Shown piece after piece: positions 18,418 through 45,375 of a stretch of 64,000 nt of DNA. The stretch covers positions 24,675-88,674 of the forward strand of contig DOMK01000009.1 in assembly GCA_003510435.1 (NCBI GenBank), given 5' to 3'. The first letter of the stretch is position 1; each line of letters begins with the position of its first letter. This DNA is from Candidatus Magasanikiibacteriota bacterium (GTDB lineage Bacteria > Patescibacteriota > Patescibacteriia > Magasanikbacterales > UBA922). The notes beneath the pieces were generated by a model. That model was not told where the DNA came from, ran no database searches, and saw nothing but the letters and a program-made list of their open reading frames with translations. The translations under genes and the position numbers were made by a program.

Positions 18418-21400
18418 TTAAATAACTATCGACACCAATCTCCCTTTTACATAAATAACTTTTTTCGGTTCCTTACCTTCTAACCATTTCTGTACTTTGT
18501 CTGATGCAAGTGCTAATTTTTTTATTTCTTCTTCACTAATATCCACTGGCACTTGAAATTCATCACGTACTTTACCATTTACTTGTGCCACTACAGTAAT
18601 AACGTCATCAATAATTAATTTTGGATCATATTCTGACCATTCACTCAAAGCAATGCTGTCTTTATTTCCCAAATCAGCCCATAATTCTTCACAAAGATGT
18701 GGGGCGAAGGGAGAGAGTAATTTAAGGAGTAAGGAATAAGGAGTAAGGAATAATTGTTCCTCTTTACTCATCTCATTTACTAAAATCATCAGTTGTGCAA
18801 CCGCGGTATTAAAATGCATCGCTTCAATATCTTCACTTACTTTTTTTATAGTCTGATGCAACAAAGTATCAATTTTCGTATTTCGTAATTTCGTATCTTT
18901 CGTAGTTCGTATCCCCAAATTCCACACCTTCTCCAAAAATCTCCGCACTCCAACCACTCCATTCGTATCCCACGCCACTGCTTGGTCAAATGGCCCCATA
19001 AACATTATATAAGTCCTGAAAGCATCAGTGCCAAATTTTTCTACCATCTCATCTGGGTTTATTACATTCCCTCTGCTCTTACTCATTTTTTCACCATCAG
19101 AAGCCAAAATCATGCCATGTGAAGTACGTTTTTTATATGGTTCACTCGTTGGCACCAAACCAATATCAAATAAAAATTCATTCCAAAATCTAGAATACAA
19201 TAAATGCAAAACTGTGTGCTCCATTCCCCCATTATACCAATCAACTGGATTCCAATAATCCATTTTTTCTCTATCCCAAATATATTCACCATTTTTTTCT
19301 TTCATCATGGTATAAGCTAAAAAATACCAAGAACTACCAGCCCAATTTGGCATAGTATCAGTTTCTCGTCTCGCTTCACCACCGCAAACCGGACAAATGG
19401 TATTTACCCACTCATCAATATGCGCCAATGGAGATTCGCCATTGTCAGTTGGTTCATATTTTGCTACTTTTGGTAATTCAAGTGGTAGAGATGATTCTGG
19501 AAGTGGAATCCAGCCAGTATTTTCTAGGAGTTGCAATACCATTGGCTCTTCAGATGCTGTAAAATGTACATCTTCAGGTCTTGCTAAAACTAAAGTTCCA
19601 TCTAATTTCTTTTCCAAATCTCTTAAATCCTTTTCAAATATTGTTTTAAAATCAATATCTCCTAAAATTATAAATTCATTACTTAATTTTTTTATCTTTT
19701 CAAAATCAAAATTCCAATCACAACTTTTTTCTACCACAGGACGTATCTTATCTGGAAATTTTGCTGTCACAACTGGATCAAGAAGTAAAACTTTAGCCAC
19801 TTTTTTATTTAATTTTTCTAATAATTTATATACAACAACTCCACCTAAACTATGGCCAACCAAAATTGTATTTTCATCAATTTTGGTATTTTTTAAAATA
19901 TATTCAACTTGTTCATCAATATTTGGTTCATTGGTATTTGGTAAATCGGGACAAAACACAGTATTTCCCTGCTTTTCTAAAATTTGTTTCATCCACGGCT
20001 TCCAACCTTCACCTGAATAGGACATAAATCCATGAACAAAAACATAATGATGTTTTTTATTTTTACAATTTTCACAATAAACCAATGGGATTGGTTCACC
20101 CCAATAACGCTGACGAGAAAATACCCAGTCGCGAAGTTTGTAATTAACTGCCCGTTTACCTAAATTATTTTTTACAATATATTCTATAATATCTTGTCTT
20201 ACTTCATCCCACTTTCTACCTTTAAAATCAATTGGCTCTTCTAAAATACCATTCTGTTCACGATAAAATATTTCTGTACTACGCACTTTTTCTGCCAATT
20301 CTTTGTCCTCAGGGAACAATACTGGGTGTAATGGCAAATCATACATTTTAGCAAACTTATAATCGCGTTCATCATGAACTGAACAACCAACAATGCCAGT
20401 GCCATAATCCATTAGAGCAAAACTTGCTACCCAAATTGGTAAATTGCGCCCAATACCCAAATAATTTTCTGAATAACGGCCAATAAAAATACCTTCCATA
20501 TCACTATCTATATCAAACTTATCACCAGCTTTTTTCTTTTTTATTTTTTCCACAAATTCCATTACTTCTTTTTCATGTTCAGTGCCTTTTACCATTTCAT
20601 AAACATAAGGATGTTCTGGAGCAATAATTACAAAAGTTTGAGCCATAAAAGTTTGCGGAATAGAATCATAAACTTCAAATTCCAAATTCATGTCTTTTAT
20701 TTTGTGTTTAAAATTAATACCTTCGGATCGTCCAATCCAATTCTGCTGTTGAATTTTTGCTTGAGGAATATAATCAACAGTTTCCAAACCTTGTAATAAC
20801 TTATCAGCATATTTGGTAATTGAAAGCATCCACTGTTCTTTATTTCTTTTTTCTACTGGACCACCACAACGTTCGCATTTACCATCTACAACTTCCTCAT
20901 TAGCCAAACCAATTTTACAGGAAATACACCAATTGATTGGCATAGCTTTTTTATAAGCCAAACCGTGTTTGAATAATTGTAAAAATATCCACTGGGTCCA
21001 TTTGTAATATTTTGGATCAGTAGTATCTACTGCCCTATCCCAAGCAAAACTATAACCAAGCATTTTTAATTGACGCGTAAAATTGGCAATATTTTCGGCT
21101 GTCACTTCGGCTGGCGGTCGACCAGTTTTAATGGCAAAATTTTCTGTCGGCAGTCCAAAGGCATCAAAACCAATCGGGAACAAAACATTTTTTCCTTGCA
21201 TTCTTTTTTTACGACAAATCACATCCATGGCTGTAAATGGTCGTGGATGACCAACATGAAGACCAGCTCCTGATGGATAAGGAAATTCTATCAGACCATA
21301 AAATTTTTCCCTGCCCTGAGTCTTTACCGAAGGGCTTTCCTCCGTAACTTCAAAAATTTTATTGTCTTCCCAATATTTTTGCCATTTTTTCTCGCCTTGT

Positions 21401-21477
21401 TCTTCTAAAAATTCCTGATATGTTTTCATATAATTATACTTTTTTATAATAAAAGCTATCGGCACTCCCCTTGCCAC
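18418..21477 (-). CDS. leuS: leucyl-tRNA synthetase carrying an inserted YdeN/RBBP9-family serine hydrolase domain (about 190 aa). The likely start is MKTYQEF at 21429.
   Basis: HVGHP (HIGH) and KMSKS motifs; a CP1 region (IIAPEHP, GTGIVGCSVHDERD); the anticodon-binding end motif LLSPFAPHLCEELW. The insert lies between YCENC and CPVCGG and contains VFVHGF and ENTILVGHSLGG. Confidence 0.95.
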   Translation of the reverse strand: MARGVPIAFIIKKYNYMKTYQEFLEEQGEKKWQKYWEDNKIFEVTEESPSVKTQGREKFYGLIEFPYPSGAGLHVGHPRPFTAMDVICRKKRMQGKNVLFPIGFDAFGLPTENFAIKTGRPPAEVTAENIANFTRQLKMLGYSFAWDRAVDTTDPKYYKWTQWIFLQLFKHGLAYKKAMPINWCISCKIGLANEEVVDGKCERCGGPVEKRNKEQWMLSITKYADKLLQGLETVDYIPQAKIQQQNWIGRSEGINFKHKIKDMNLEFEVYDSIPQTFMAQTFVIIAPEHPYVYEMVKGTEHEKEVMEFVEKIKKKKAGDKFDIDSDMEGIFIGRYSENYLGIGRNLPIWVASFALMDYGTGIVGCSVHDERDYKFAKMYDLPLHPVLFPEDKELAEKVRSTEIFYREQNGILEEPIDFKGRKWDEVRQDIIEYIVKNNLGKRAVNYKLRDWVFSRQRYWGEPIPLVYCENCKNKKHHYVFVHGFMSYSGEGWKPWMKQILEKQGNTVFCPDLPNTNEPNIDEQVEYILKNTKIDENTILVGHSLGGVVVYKLLEKLNKKVAKVLLLDPVVTAKFPDKIRPVVEKSCDWNFDFEKIKKLSNEFIILGDIDFKTIFEKDLRDLEKKLDGTLVLARPEDVHFTASEEPMVLQLLENTGWIPLPESSLPLELPKVAKYEPTDNGESPLAHIDEWVNTICPVCGGEARRETDTMPNWAGSSWYFLAYTMMKEKNGEYIWDREKMDYWNPVDWYNGGMEHTVLHLLYSRFWNEFLFDIGLVPTSEPYKKRTSHGMILASDGEKMSKSRGNVINPDEMVEKFGTDAFRTYIMFMGPFDQAVAWDTNGVVGVRRFLEKVWNLGIRTTKDTKLRNTKIDTLLHQTIKKVSEDIEAMHFNTAVAQLMILVNEMSKEEQLFLTPYSLLLKLLSPFAPHLCEELWADLGNKDSIALSEWSEYDPKLIIDDVITVVAQVNGKVRDEFQVPVDISEEEIKKLALASDKVQKWLEGKEPKKVIYVKGRLVSIVI

Positions 21478-22300
21478 CAGTAATTTCCTCTTTTACAAAC
21501 AAAACTCTTCCACTCTCATCAATTACTGTATTATTTTTACTAGAAATCAATGAACCTTTAATTGTCTCAAATGATGGCCCTGAAATCATAATAACATCTC
21601 CAATATTCATAATCCGATATAATTCACTAATTACGCTACTCACATATTTCTTTACTAAATCAGAATTATAACCATCCTGTGTATCCTCTTGTATTCCGCA
21701 AAGCAAAACATTTCCTCCGTAATTATCTGGAATGGAACGAACAAAATTTAACATTTCTTCTCTCAAAACATAAAGCTCCATAGCTTTACCATCGGGTCTC
21801 TCAACCTTGTCATACATTTCTTTCCTTGGGCATATATCAACTCCTACATATTCATTTGCTCCATATTGTGCTAATACTTCTGCCAAATCCTCAATTAGTA
21901 AATCATTTCCCCCACAACCTAAATCAAAAAAATTTTTACCATTTATAAGTTCGGCTATTCTTTTTTTATATGTCTCAAATTCTTCTATAAACCTCTGACC
22001 TTCACGTGGTGGTTTAATATCACTAAGAAATAAATCTGCAAATGGTATTTGTGACAAAACAAAAGGATGTTTACGTTCATCAAATTTTATTACCTCCCTT
22101 GGTTTAATAGGACGATTAAAACGAGCGCGTAATTCAACGACTTTTTTCTTAGAAAATTCCTGATTAATTAAATAGTCAGCATATTTTTTATCTTCATATC
22201 TTTTTCCTTCTCCACTTTTCATATTTTGAACCAAAAATAAGGCTTTTACTTGCCTAAAGAATAATATAGATATTTTAGCTAAAAACCCTATATTTTGCAA
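21434..22300 (-). CDS. SAM-dependent methyltransferase-like protein. The start is probably MKSGEGKRY near 22222.
   Basis: FFDLGCGGNDLL motif. Confidence 0.5.
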   Translation of the reverse strand: MQNIGFLAKISILFFRQVKALFLVQNMKSGEGKRYEDKKYADYLINQEFSKKKVVELRARFNRPIKPREVIKFDERKHPFVLSQIPFADLFLSDIKPPREGQRFIEEFETYKKRIAELINGKNFFDLGCGGNDLLIEDLAEVLAQYGANEYVGVDICPRKEMYDKVERPDGKAMELYVLREEMLNFVRSIPDNYGGNVLLCGIQEDTQDGYNSDLVKKYVSSVISELYRIMNIGDVIMISGPSFETIKGSLISSKNNTVIDESGRVLFVKEEITGGKGSADSFYYKKV

Positions 22301-41318: not shown

Positions 41319-41390
41319 GCCGCCATCGTCTAACGGCTAGGACTTCGCCTTCTCAAGGCGGAAATCGGAGTTCGATTCTCCGTGGCGGTA
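41319..41390 (+). tRNA. tRNA-Glu (anticodon CTC)
   Basis: Manual cloverleaf: acceptor GCCGCCA/TGGCGGT, D-arm GTCTAACGGCTAGGAC, anticodon loop TTCTCAA, T-arm CGGAGTTCGATTCTCCG. CCA is not encoded. Confidence 0.75.
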
Positions 41391-41403
41391 CAACAAAATA
41401 AAT

Positions 41404-41477
41404 GTCAGGGTAGCTCAGCTGGTTAGAGCGTAGCATTCATAACGCTAAGGTCGGGAGTTCGAGCCTCCCCCTTGACA
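41404..41477 (+). tRNA. tRNA with CAT anticodon (elongator Met, or Ile2 if lysidinylated)
   Basis: Acceptor GTCAGGG/CCTTGAC, D-arm GCTCAGCTGGTTAGAGC, anticodon loop TTCATAA, T-arm GGGAGTTCGAGCCTCCC. Confidence 0.75.
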
Positions 41478-41484
41478 CAAAAAA

Positions 41485-45186: not shown

Positions 45187-45302
45187 AAATATAAATGCTT
45201 GAAAAGCCTAAAACGCCAAAAAGGCTTGAAAGGCCTGTGGATAATTAATACCTATATTTTAGCATAATAAAAACCAAGCGACAATGCTTGATTTTTGATG
45301 TG

Positions 45303-45375
45303 TCGGGCTAGGCAGACTTGAACTGCCGACCTCGTCGTCCCGAACGACGCGCGCTACCAACTGCGCTATAGCCCG
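45303..45375 (-). tRNA. tRNA-Pro (anticodon CGG)
   Basis: Reverse complement CGGGCTATAGCGCAGTTGGTAGCGCGCGTCGTTCGGGACGACGAGGTCGGCAGTTCAAGTCTGCCTAGCCCGA folds as a cloverleaf with anticodon loop TTCGGGA. Confidence 0.8.

Follow-up and report, generated by a model that had tools for sequence, protein, structure and literature searches.

Few enzymes have been studied as thoroughly as the aminoacyl-tRNA synthetases, whose accessory domains, such as CP1, the ZN modules and the leucine-specific domain, are thought to have been largely catalogued. A published survey of domain insertions names leucyl-tRNA synthetase (LeuRS) for CP1 only. The four-cysteine ZN-2 module, which is specific to bacterial and mitochondrial LeuRS and essential in the enzyme (PMC4005665), belongs to its static body and is not among the mobile elements concerned with the CCA end (PMC9424281). 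A class Ia synthetase with an unrelated small enzyme domain is represented by the IleRS carrying a GNAT domain (NCBIfam NF040702, 'ileS_w_GNAT'). YdeN of B. subtilis (1UXO) and human RBBP9 (2QS9, 7OEX) are free-standing alpha/beta hydrolases, the latter of which removes acyl groups with a free alpha-amino group; the bond that it cleaves may be an amide, an ester or a thioester (PMC8866121). Here, we describe a LeuRS in which an enzyme of the YdeN/RBBP9 family lies inside ZN-2; it differs from the GNAT-bearing IleRS in both the host and the inserted fold, which is non-homologous.

The host synthetase and the position of the insert

The leuS gene of a groundwater Patescibacterium (Candidatus Magasanikbacteria) is located on the minus strand of a 64-kb window, that is, the whole stretch of 64,000 nucleotides that was analysed. 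The preliminary description gave its product as 1019 aa. Such an ORF does exist in the ORF list (18418..21477, minus strand, from an upstream in-frame GTG at 21477), but public gene calls begin at M17 (ATG 21429), which makes 1003 aa the likelier length; the public protein P0020 has 1003 aa and is 100% identical. Residues are numbered throughout according to the 1019-aa ORF. The features of the host protein are as follows:

18418..21429, minus strand: leuS, 1003 aa from the ATG at 21429, stop included
21247..21258, minus strand: HIGH signature HVGH, residues 74-77, located as a motif and aligned to HMGH of T. thermophilus
20866..20928, minus strand: ZN-1 zinc knuckle, CISC 184-187 and CERC 201-204, from motif search and comparison with relatives
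20179..20745, minus strand: CP1 editing domain of the 'DSIPQT' class, residues 245-433 (Pfam PF13603, 139.4 bits)
20065..20079, minus strand: first half of ZN-2, YCENC 467-471 (C468, C471), aligned to T. thermophilus C439/C442
19516..20064, minus strand: inserted YdeN/RBBP9-family alpha/beta serine hydrolase, subtype A, K472-T654, 183 aa, with no LeuRS counterpart
19378..19395, minus strand: second half of ZN-2, CPVCGG 695-700 (C695, C698), aligned to T. thermophilus C484/C487 and invariant in alignment A2
19075..19089, minus strand: KMSKS signature, residues 797-801, located as a motif and in the T. thermophilus alignment

LeuS is a complete bacterial-type LeuRS that retains all four ZN-2 cysteines and the synthetase signatures. 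The whole protein scores 895.5 bits against the equivalog NCBIfam model leuS_bact (TIGR00396, cutoff 548.4), in three stretches broken by the insert, and its full-length AF2 model (pLDDT 86.3) is similar to bacterial LeuRS structures (Foldseek TMt 0.74-0.84). With the canonical enzymes of T. thermophilus (1H3N/2BYT), N. gonorrhoeae (7NU*) and E. coli (4AQ7) it shares HIGH, KMSKS, ZN-1, the placement of CP1, the four-Cys ZN-2 and the anticodon-binding and C-terminal domains. CP1 follows the CISC/CERC of ZN-1, as is the bacterial arrangement, and ZN-1 is kept across 120 LeuRS relatives as CxxC...CxxC or CPKD...CERC; the cysteines of the first half of ZN-2 (C452/C455 in alignment A2) are invariant. 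LeuS differs from the canonical set in its threonine-rich motif, DSIPQT, and in the missing leucine-specific domain: in the alignment with T. thermophilus LeuRS, no such domain precedes KMSKS, and residues 584-636 of the latter are left without a counterpart.

In the same alignment, T. thermophilus residues 10-442 extend up to the first CxxC of ZN-2 and residues 443-583 resume at G655, leaving 183 in-frame residues between the first CxxC and the equivalent of T. thermophilus G443. This clean break places the true insert at K472-T654 (window positions 19516-20064), so that LeuS has an extra enzyme between T. thermophilus C442 and G443. The earlier placement of the insert within a single zinc module, flanked by its two CxxC halves, is borne out by this alignment and by the motif positions; the limits first given (19498-20058, residues 474-660) run 6 residues too far at the C-terminal end, which makes no material difference. 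Since ZN-2 is both static (PMC9424281) and essential (PMC4005665), an insertion at the tip of the knuckle that keeps the four cysteines is structurally plausible.

Fold and active site of the embedded hydrolase

The insert is a compact, folded alpha/beta serine hydrolase of the YdeN/RBBP9 family. Analysed in isolation, it matches Pfam Abhydrolase_1 (45.8 bits, cutoff 25.8, E=7.7e-12), Abhydrolase_6 (36.0 bits, cutoff 26.3) and, as had been anticipated, PF06821 Ser_hydrolase (33.2 bits, cutoff 22), the last match being confined to the N-terminal half of the model (positions 2-94 of 172). The top phmmer match in the PDB is YdeN (1UXO, E=6e-11), and this alignment reproduces the motif pairs that had been noticed by eye (YdeN YIIHGY, HWFPWLKK and HENTYLVAHSLGC). 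An AF2 model of the insert (pLDDT 95.9, pTM 0.92) was matched by Foldseek to 1UXO with E=1.5e-13 and TM 0.80/0.82 and to RBBP9 with TM 0.81-0.84; the next family follows at E~1e-7, about 5 orders of magnitude behind. Pfam, the PDB sequence search and the structural comparison thus agree on the family first proposed. With YdeN and RBBP9, the insert has in common the ~185-aa fold, the HG motif, the G-H-S-x-G nucleophile elbow and the C-terminal G/x-H-F histidine, whereas, unlike them, it lies inside another enzyme. The active-site positions are as follows:

20029..20034, minus strand: H482-G483, oxyanion-hole 'HG' motif; His in 84/84 Patescibacterial homologs, the next residue G or A
19840..19857, minus strand: nucleophile elbow G-H-S543-L-G-G, residues 541-546; S543 (19849-19851) aligns to RBBP9 S75
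19777..19779, minus strand: D567, candidate relocated catalytic acid directly after strand beta6; Asp in 30/30 subtype-A inserts
19657..19659, minus strand: D607, second candidate relocated acid at the end of strand beta7; conserved as Asp in all 30 subtype-A inserts
19648..19650, minus strand: F610, at the canonical acid position, to which RBBP9 D138 aligns
19564..19566, minus strand: H638, catalytic histidine (V-H-F), present in 84/84 homologs and aligned to RBBP9 H165

The nucleophile is S543, and not S544 as previously assigned; the elbow serine and the second glycine are invariant in the 65/65 inserts and in 19/19 free-standing homologs. The expected Ser-His-Asp triad was recovered in part in the alignment: S543 and H638 are invariant (84/84), but the canonical Asp after beta7 (RBBP9 D138, in the motif 'S-x-x-D-P') is absent from the insert, which has Phe610 in its place. 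Loss of this Asp at column 610 covaries perfectly with the presence of both D567 and D607 in the 30 subtype-A sequences, and an Asp at position 567, whose placement relative to the strands is taken from the predicted structure, is absent from all 54 sequences in which the canonical acid persists. P0001, the nearest of the free-standing relatives, takes an intermediate position in having both D607 and D610. The occurrence of two invariant aspartates exactly where the canonical acid has been lost points to migration of the acid and not decay; therefore, the insert is regarded as a derived subtype with a putatively relocated acid, homologous to the PF06821 family. From this pattern of conservation we infer that Ser543 and His638, together with Asp567 or Asp607, would make the insert an active hydrolase.

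Distribution, origin and relation to CP1 editing

Another important question is how widely this nested architecture occurs. Among the 120 nearest LeuRS clusters, 65 bear the hydrolase module at the same ZN-2 site, with common junction residues (NKK... / ...NT-GW), and a single-sequence scan found the architecture in three further species-representative genomes, so the suggested check in related CPR genomes came out in favour of conservation. The architecture is widely conserved in Patescibacteria. It had been thought undescribed, and a literature search covering hydrolase, NUDIX and CPR domain insertions in LeuRS indeed yielded no paper on it; nevertheless, it is not rare, because public databases contain dozens of LeuRS from Patescibacteria with this insert. 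The identical LeuS protein was present in two independent assemblies from different runs, and its in-frame junction recurs in homologs, which rules out the assembly artefact that had been considered and excludes a chimera.

An intein was likewise rejected. Intein junctions have an N-terminal Cys, Ser or Thr and a C-terminal His-Asn followed by Cys, Ser or Thr. The insert starts with Lys and ends in ...E-N-T|G, which are not splice residues, and Pfam gave no Hint/intein, LAGLIDADG/HNH or endonuclease signal within it; the junctions show no flanking repeats beyond short AT-rich chance repeats.

The distribution is patchy at close range. Close relatives with 79-80% identity in the flanks lack the module, and at least 15 presence/absence changes are required on a rough NJ tree of the 120 best LeuRS matches only. 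The insert diverges much faster than its host: it is 54% identical to that of the sister P0021, whereas the host part is 77-92% identical; its nearest relative is the insert of another LeuRS, P0032 (68%). A scenario consistent with these data is a single gain at ZN-2 in the ancestor of this LeuRS lineage, which may have been followed by the separation of two subtypes and then by repeated loss or exchange through recombination among related leuS genes. In related LeuRS, other loops house NUDIX, HAD, SAM-methyltransferase and nucleotidyltransferase modules, and members of the lineage carry one to three additional complete enzymes in their surface loops, the serine hydrolase being the commonest.

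The same hydrolase family was also found in LeuRS at the junction of the catalytic and CP1 domains (P0172, P0285 and P0224) and inside CP1 (P0246 and P0184), typically as one copy per protein at these non-ZN-2 sites, and in one ValRS fragment at an analogous post-CP1 site. The search profile was biased to LeuRS-embedded sequences, which inflates the synthetase count but does not create different sites. This repeated independent entry into LeuRS sites and ValRS suggests that the hydrolase is functionally tied to class Ia synthetases and that more is involved than their tolerance of insertions. Most members of the family are free-standing proteins (20,021 representative clusters), and others are joined to NUDIX, IMPase, methyltransferase, peptidase S51, LspA, SecA, glyoxalase and other alpha/beta hydrolases. 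Six gene contexts of free-standing homologs proved too heterogeneous to assign a function: they include smpB/rnpA, RidA with a tRNA_bind protein, glycosyltransferase, CYTH/NUDIX and secA, and their sole recurring pattern is the presence of nearby NUDIX and HAD genes. Two of these homologs adjoin tRNA-related genes (smpB/rnpA and the tRNA_bind gene, respectively). Embedded copies are as acidic as free-standing ones, with no shift to basic pI and, by this comparison, no electrostatic adaptation to RNA. Within the 64-kb window, there is no second YdeN-like gene.

Patchiness among close relatives, fast divergence, promiscuous fusions and the unshifted pI are passenger-like traits. Counting against a mere passenger are entry into LeuRS at two or more other positions and into ValRS, the two homologs beside tRNA-related genes, and the resemblance of RBBP9 substrates to aminoacyl-adenosine esters (PMC8866121; in part through Shenoy 2020, as cited in PMC7730578).

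These data raise the question of whether the insert is linked to a degenerate CP1 editing site, as the preliminary description proposed. The variant threonine-rich motif is located as follows:

20650..20667, minus strand: DSIPQT, residues 271-276, equivalent to TTRPDT by T. thermophilus alignment

The motif had been read correctly: in E. coli numbering, T247, T248 and R249 are changed, and the equivalents of T252 and D345 are kept; HDERD is also retained in the T. thermophilus alignment. DSIPQT is a widespread CP1 class in its own right (45 of the 120 nearest relatives), and the association with the hydrolase runs in the opposite direction to that proposed. In the 120 nearest clusters, TTRPDT enzymes comprise 59 with and 13 without the hydrolase and DSIPQT enzymes 6 with and 39 without (odds ratio 29.5, Fisher p=1e-13, phylogenetic non-independence being ignored). 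In other words, the canonical motif is present in 59/65 hydrolase-bearing LeuRS, and the hydrolase is missing from 39/45 DSIPQT LeuRS. Compensation for a degenerate CP1 is thus rejected, since the hydrolase tracks canonical TTRPDT. The nearest CP1 relatives of LeuS are insert-free DS-type LeuRS, and it appears that LeuS gained its DSIPQT CP1 by module exchange onto the body of the hydrolase-bearing lineage.

Possible roles of the insert

The explanation that we favour, to which we give an even chance, is a complete LeuRS with a competent hydrolase in ZN-2 that was gained once and does, in tethered form, what its free-standing homologs do. The embedded enzyme would share the job of the abundant ~185-aa Patescibacterial homologs, and LeuRS would serve as the tether by being essential, constitutively made and tolerant of insertions in its surface loops. 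By analogy with RBBP9, the hydrolase may cleave a small acyl or aminoacyl ester or amide via an acyl-enzyme intermediate, and it would neither replace nor repair CP1 editing. The insert is most likely an active hydrolase with an accessory function, tethered to a synthetase that is permissive of insertions, and we infer the accessory role with moderate confidence.

A rather doubtful alternative, which generalises the earlier idea of a cis-acting deacylase, is that the hydrolase deacylates aa-tRNA(Leu) or hydrolyses the aminoacyl-adenylate made by its host, as a second proofreading or product-clearing activity that need not compensate for CP1. Acyl-enzyme formation by RBBP9 involves a single hydrophobic amino acid (Leu/Ile, Phe, Tyr, Trp) and requires a free alpha-amine (PMC8866121), and RBBP9 is reported, in the account of Shenoy 2020 given in PMC7730578, to activate valacyclovir, the valyl ester of a nucleoside analogue. 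The independent insertions at three or more sites of LeuRS and in ValRS, both editing class Ia enzymes, the invariant catalytic Ser and His, and the free-standing homologs next to smpB/rnpA and a tRNA_bind gene point the same way. However, the association with CP1 degeneracy is reversed, the module looks dispensable among close relatives, the family is fused promiscuously to non-translation proteins, other contexts of its free-standing members are unrelated to translation, and the embedded domains remain acidic. The RBBP9 alpha-amine ligands S76/Y99/E108 align to L544/V569/P580, in variable columns where the alignment is uncertain, and are not kept, and ZN-2 is part of the static body instead of the mobile elements serving the CCA end (PMC9424281). 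Searches of Pfam, NCBIfam, PDB sequences and Foldseek connected the insert to no established aminoacyl-tRNA deacylase by sequence or fold. CP1, AlaX, YbaK/ProX, DTD and peptidyl-tRNA hydrolase have no sequence or fold kinship to it and would share its substrate class only if aminoacyl esters were the substrate; to our knowledge, none of them uses an alpha/beta-hydrolase Ser-His-Asp triad.

It is quite improbable that the module is an antidote embedded in its target, in which the hydrolase, like the NUDIX, HAD, methyltransferase and nucleotidyltransferase domains of relatives, would destroy or modify aminoacyl-adenylate-mimic inhibitors of class Ia synthetases. The model for such a role is the action of MccF and MccE on processed microcin C: the serine peptidase MccF and the GNAT MccE, also small enzymes, inactivate a mimic of an aminoacyl-adenylate that is directed against a synthetase (PMC7157772), but they are free-standing or encoded in biosynthetic clusters and non-homologous to the embedded hydrolase. 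The families found in these LeuRS are typical small-molecule-modifying folds, a GNAT embedded in IleRS is curated (NF040702), the adenylate mimic TM84 is known to target LeuRS according to the 3ZGZ structure and what PMC5059758 relates of it, and accessory resistance traits show a similarly patchy and recombining distribution. This support is wholly circumstantial; no accompanying genes for biosynthesis or transport were observed, and the hydrolase is also fused to SecA, LspA, IMPase and others.

Very improbable, too, is a catalytically dead scaffold, a pseudoenzyme kept for its structure as a spacer or for binding protein or RNA: Phe610 at the canonical acid position in subtype A and the faster evolution of the insert would fit it, but Ser, His and the HG motif are unchanged in 84/84 homologs, the two new aspartates are invariant exactly in the subtype without the canonical acid, and the fold is predicted with very high confidence. 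An artefact or selfish element (chimeric assembly, frameshifted two-gene fusion or intein-like mobile insertion) can practically be dismissed: GC falls to 0.24 within the insert and the distribution is patchy, but two assemblies, more than 65 architectures with the same in-frame junction and three further genomes contradict it.

A more general proposal is that Patescibacterial class Ia synthetases are platforms for small catalytic 'guard' modules acting on synthetase-linked molecules, among them the hydrolase and the NUDIX, HAD, methyltransferase and nucleotidyltransferase modules of relatives. In this case the hydrolase would be a cis-acting aminoacyl-ester or -adenylate hydrolase of a new, non-CP1 type, serving additional proofreading and clearance of products or else destroying antibiotics that mimic adenylates where they bind. 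We consider this tentative and on the unlikely side; what speaks for it is the repeated, independent insertion of the same hydrolase into LeuRS (three or more sites) and ValRS.

The hydrolase-bearing LeuRS lineage of these ultra-small uncultured bacteria is a robust and widely conserved exception to the catalogued domains of aminoacyl-tRNA synthetases. The inserts form a natural series that records how the catalytic acid of an alpha/beta hydrolase has migrated. Automated annotation labels some of these synthetases 'alpha/beta fold hydrolase' or 'hypothetical protein', and such mislabelling of essential enzymes bears on completeness estimates of CPR genomes. If the module is an autonomous passenger, it would be a striking natural case of streamlined genomes nesting enzymes in essential proteins and would show which LeuRS loops tolerate insertions of 180-350 aa, which is useful for engineering; if it acts on aminoacyl esters or adenylates, it would amount to a new class of built-in synthetase activity serving quality control or self-protection.

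The leuS gene and its insert

The longest leuS ORF encodes 1019 aa, a numbering that was kept for comparability with the preliminary description. Public gene calls start at Met17 (ATG 21429) and give a product of 1003 aa; the identical database protein, P0020, is annotated as 'hypothetical protein DEB09_02270, Candidatus Magasanikbacteria'. The GTG-start ORF (from 21477) overlaps the end of an upstream 288-aa ORF (21434-22300, minus strand), an overlap that the ATG start avoids.

Features of leuS and its product
18418..21477, minus strand: longest leuS ORF, GTG start
residues 74-77: HVGH, class I signature
residues 797-801: KMSKS, class I signature
CISC/CERC: ZN-1 knuckles
residues 245-433: CP1 editing domain (Pfam PF13603)
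19516-20064, minus strand: K472-T654, hydrolase insert (183 residues)
residues 695-700: CPVCGG, second CxxC of ZN-2

An anticodon-binding domain and a LeuRS C-terminal domain are also present. With the NCBIfam equivalog leuS_bact the protein reaches 895.5 bits (cutoff 548.4), and its full-length model (pLDDT 86.3, pTM 0.77), in which the hydrolase is the best-modelled segment, matches bacterial LeuRS structures with target-normalised TM values of 0.74-0.84. The leucine-specific domain (residues 584-636 of T. thermophilus LeuRS, 1H3N, hereafter Tth) has no counterpart: the alignment skips from Tth 583 to 637, a gap that maps to window positions ~19090-19140 (minus strand), just upstream of KMSKS. 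Three tRNA genes were found in the window, tRNA-Glu(CTC) and tRNA-Met(CAT), 12 nt apart (41319-41478, plus strand), and tRNA-Pro(CGG) (45302-45375, minus strand); the window has no tRNA-Leu.

The residue-level alignment with Tth is unbroken as far as the second YCENC cysteine (Tth C442) and restarts at Tth G443, which corresponds to G655. Since K472-T654 lacks a LeuRS counterpart and the second CxxC is aligned to Tth C484/C487, the insert lies inside ZN-2, right after the first knuckle. The proposed placement between the two halves of one zinc motif is thus borne out, although the C-terminal junction had been set six residues too far. An alignment of 53 sequences shows no variation at any of the four ZN-2 cysteines, which fits the loss of aminoacylation in ZN-2 Cys-to-Ala mutants (PMC4005665).

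Searched alone, the insert matched Abhydrolase_1 (45.8 bits, cutoff 25.8), Abhydrolase_6 (36.0, cutoff 26.3) and, as anticipated in the preliminary description, Ser_hydrolase PF06821 (33.2, cutoff 22; N-terminal half of the model only). Its top match in all PDB sequences was B. subtilis YdeN (1UXO, E=6e-11); RBBP9 scored E about 2e-3. The 1UXO alignment reproduced the motif pairs noticed earlier. An AlphaFold2 model built with 46 homologs (mean pLDDT 95.9, pTM 0.92) likewise had YdeN 1UXO as its top structural match (E=1.5e-13, TM 0.80/0.82), and four RBBP9 chains gave TM values of 0.81-0.84; the next alpha/beta-hydrolase group trailed by about five orders of magnitude in E-value. Agreement between sequence and predicted fold confirms the assignment to the YdeN/RBBP9 family.

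A hydrolase of 178-209 aa occupies exactly this ZN-2 site in 65 of the 120 best-scoring LeuRS clusters, all of which are Patescibacteria-like. Carriers share the junction residues C-x-x-C-[NK]-K-K... and ...N-T-G-W, and insert-free sister proteins have 0-41 residues at the site. In three more species-representative genomes the hydrolase is likewise part of a LeuRS ORF, flanked by its two CxxC pairs.

Candidate roles of the embedded hydrolase

The reading that we favour, with middling confidence, is that LeuRS is functional and carries an active hydrolase of the YdeN type. The domain would act as a serine hydrolase through S543-H638 and a relocated Asp. It would have the function of the free-standing Patescibacterial homologs but be attached to an essential protein that tolerates insertions, and would not substitute for CP1 editing.

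This last point bears on the initial suggestion that the hydrolase compensates for a degenerate CP1. The Tth alignment does bear out that DSIPQT stands in place of the threonine-rich motif TTRPDT, with the T252 and D345 equivalents retained. Among the relatives, the hydrolase is present in 59 and absent from 13 LeuRS with TTRPDT, and present in 6 and absent from 39 with DSIPQT (odds ratio 29.5, Fisher p = 1e-13, a test that ignores shared ancestry); the three extra genomes with the hydrolase all have TTRPDT. On these counts the inference of editing compensation does not hold: the hydrolase mostly accompanies TTRPDT (59/65), and 39/45 DSIPQT proteins lack it. The predominance of TTRPDT among carriers indicates that the hydrolase usually coexists with an editing site that appears intact.

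A second possibility, which we consider rather unlikely, is that the domain acts in cis on aminoacyl esters or adenylates. When 1.84 billion representative proteins were searched exhaustively with a profile, the hydrolase family turned up in 20,021 clusters, and about 24 of the best 150 matches were LeuRS or LeuRS fragments, in which ZN-2 was not always the site. The hydrolase lies where the catalytic domain meets CP1 in P0172, P0285 and P0224, and inside CP1 in P0246 and P0184; P0172 and P0246, whose sequences span the ZN-2 site, have no insertion there. A ValRS fragment (P0241) carries it at a roughly comparable point, just ahead of valS profile position ~460. Such recurrence in synthetases would favour a tie to aminoacylation, as would two free-standing homologs that adjoin smpB-rnpA and a tRNA_bind gene, respectively. 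To our knowledge, RBBP9 is the sole biochemically characterised member of the family. Its chemistry points the same way: RBBP9 strips off single aminoacyl groups, hydrophobic or aromatic, only when the alpha-amine is free, and Leu/Ile are among the acyl-enzymes trapped (PMC8866121). It has also been cited as a valacyclovir-activating enzyme.

Against such a tie, the RBBP9 alpha-amine ligands are not conserved in the hydrolase, family members are mostly free-standing proteins of about 185 aa, and the remaining gene neighbourhoods of the latter are unrelated to translation. Other fusion partners are NUDIX (several), other alpha/beta hydrolases, inositol monophosphatase, SAM methyltransferase, peptidase S51, signal peptidase II, glyoxalase and SecA (wing/scaffold insertion). 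Embedding goes with no shift towards a more basic composition: the median pI is 6.0-6.3 for embedded domains and 5.9 for free ones. In NgLeuRS, the CCA end is handled by mobile elements, namely the CP1 hairpin, the editing domain and the leucine-specific domain, whereas Zn2 is drawn with the static body (PMC9424281). Furthermore, LeuRS of this clade hosts other enzymes: NUDIX, HAD_2 or SAM-methyltransferase modules inside CP1, one or two NUDIX domains immediately ahead of CP1, and, at the site of the leucine-specific domain, an ANT(2'')-like nucleotidyltransferase (P0023, P0043, P0044, P0067, P0094, P0099 and P0118, up to 1358 aa). LeuRS is therefore a generally permissive carrier.

The same families also meet outside LeuRS. 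Free-standing YdeN-like genes are adjacent to, or at most 3-5 kb from, free-standing NUDIX and HAD_2 genes (loci L011 4001-5183, L007 4001-8473 and L006 6001-12010), the same three families that are embedded together in LeuRS, and direct hydrolase-NUDIX fusions occur in P0148, P0213 and P0222. P0219 has a YdeN-like hydrolase within the wing/scaffold domain of SecA, and in other genomes (L013 4001-4573) a separate YdeN-like gene overlaps the secA 3' end by 17 nt, which looks like two stages of fusion.

By analogy with MccF/MccE (PMC7157772) and with a curated NCBIfam family of IleRS with GNAT, the hydrolase might instead be an antidote embedded in the target of adenylate-mimic inhibitors, a role that we regard as very unlikely.

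Active site and catalytic acid

H482 of the H-G motif, the nucleophile serine S543 (G-H-S-L-G) and H638 are invariant in 65 embedded and 19 free-standing homologs. The acid column was located by an alignment anchored on the published RBBP9 triad S75/D138/H165; the RBBP9 sequence used as anchor agrees with all six published residue identities. The triad expected in the preliminary description is upheld for Ser and His, but the canonical Asp (D138) column holds Phe610 in the window LeuS.

Acidic residues in the two groups of homologs
Subtype B (longer inserts) and all free-standing, n=54: Asp in column 610, 54/54; D567, none; D607, 1 (P0001)
Subtype A (all LeuRS-embedded, including the window insert), n=30: acid of column 610 lost in 28; D567, 30/30; D607, 30/30

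Asp567 directly follows strand beta6, and Asp607 stands at the beta7 end. An apparent intermediate in the shift is P0001, the nearest of the free-standing relatives (41% identity), in which D607 occurs together with the canonical Asp. At the level of the alignment, so clean a split reads as the signature of catalytic-acid migration, not decay. Such migration is known in the alpha/beta-hydrolase superfamily. A pseudoenzyme, to which the loss of the canonical acid could point, is scarcely probable given the invariant Ser and His.

Distribution and mosaic history

The exact LeuS protein occurs on two independently assembled contigs from different sequencing runs, a 124-kb groundwater contig (ENA ERZ909580) and a Logan contig (SRR6487867). 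Together with the recurrent architecture in relatives, this answers the earlier concern about a chimeric assembly, and an artefact or mobile element is next to impossible.

GC content is 0.24 within the insert (19600-19899) and 0.33-0.40 in flanking leuS, which is consistent with a Lys/Asn/Ile-rich composition; beyond GC, no further signs of recent transfer of the insert were seen. A Ser/Phe-rich, low-complexity 207-aa ORF antisense to it (19397-20020, plus strand) is not a gene but simply arises from the AT richness of the coding strand. A LeuRS of Patescibacteria type with the hydrolase (73% identity over the insert) is also encoded at locus L017 (CAZHEJ010000001.1), in a MAG that bears the title 'uncultured Gammaproteobacteria bacterium' and is probably mis-binned or mislabelled.

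Compared with relatives P0020-P0139, the window LeuS looks mosaic. Its CP1 is nearest to insert-free DS-type LeuRS (76-77% identity), and the catalytic core, the flanks of ZN-2 and the C-terminal half come nearest to TTR-type hydrolase-bearing LeuRS (78-87%). The insert is nearest to that of P0032 (68%) and not to that of its sister P0021 (54%), whose host regions share 77-92% identity with the window LeuS. On rough NJ trees, the CP1 class requires two changes on the CP1 tree versus eight on the body tree, which suggests exchange of the CP1 module between leuS genes; hydrolase presence requires at least 15 on either. These comparisons make it evident that leuS modules are shuffled by recombination among these bacteria and that loss or exchange of the hydrolase has happened many times.

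Both parts, bacterial LeuRS with ZN-2 and the YdeN/RBBP9 hydrolases, are already known, and public databases already contain their combination, with names given by automatic annotation: 'leucine--tRNA ligase', 'alpha/beta fold hydrolase', 'hypothetical protein' and, at JGI, 'leucyl-tRNA synthetase/predicted alpha/beta hydrolase family esterase'. Full-text literature searches found no published description of a LeuRS with an embedded hydrolase, and LeuRS appears in a 2026 domain-insertion survey for CP1 only. In line with the preliminary description, the architecture seems not to have been described for LeuS, although public sequences carry it. The LeuRS-hydrolase is an aminoacyl-tRNA synthetase with an extra embedded enzyme, an architecture that is robust, conserved and recurrent and whose function is directly testable.
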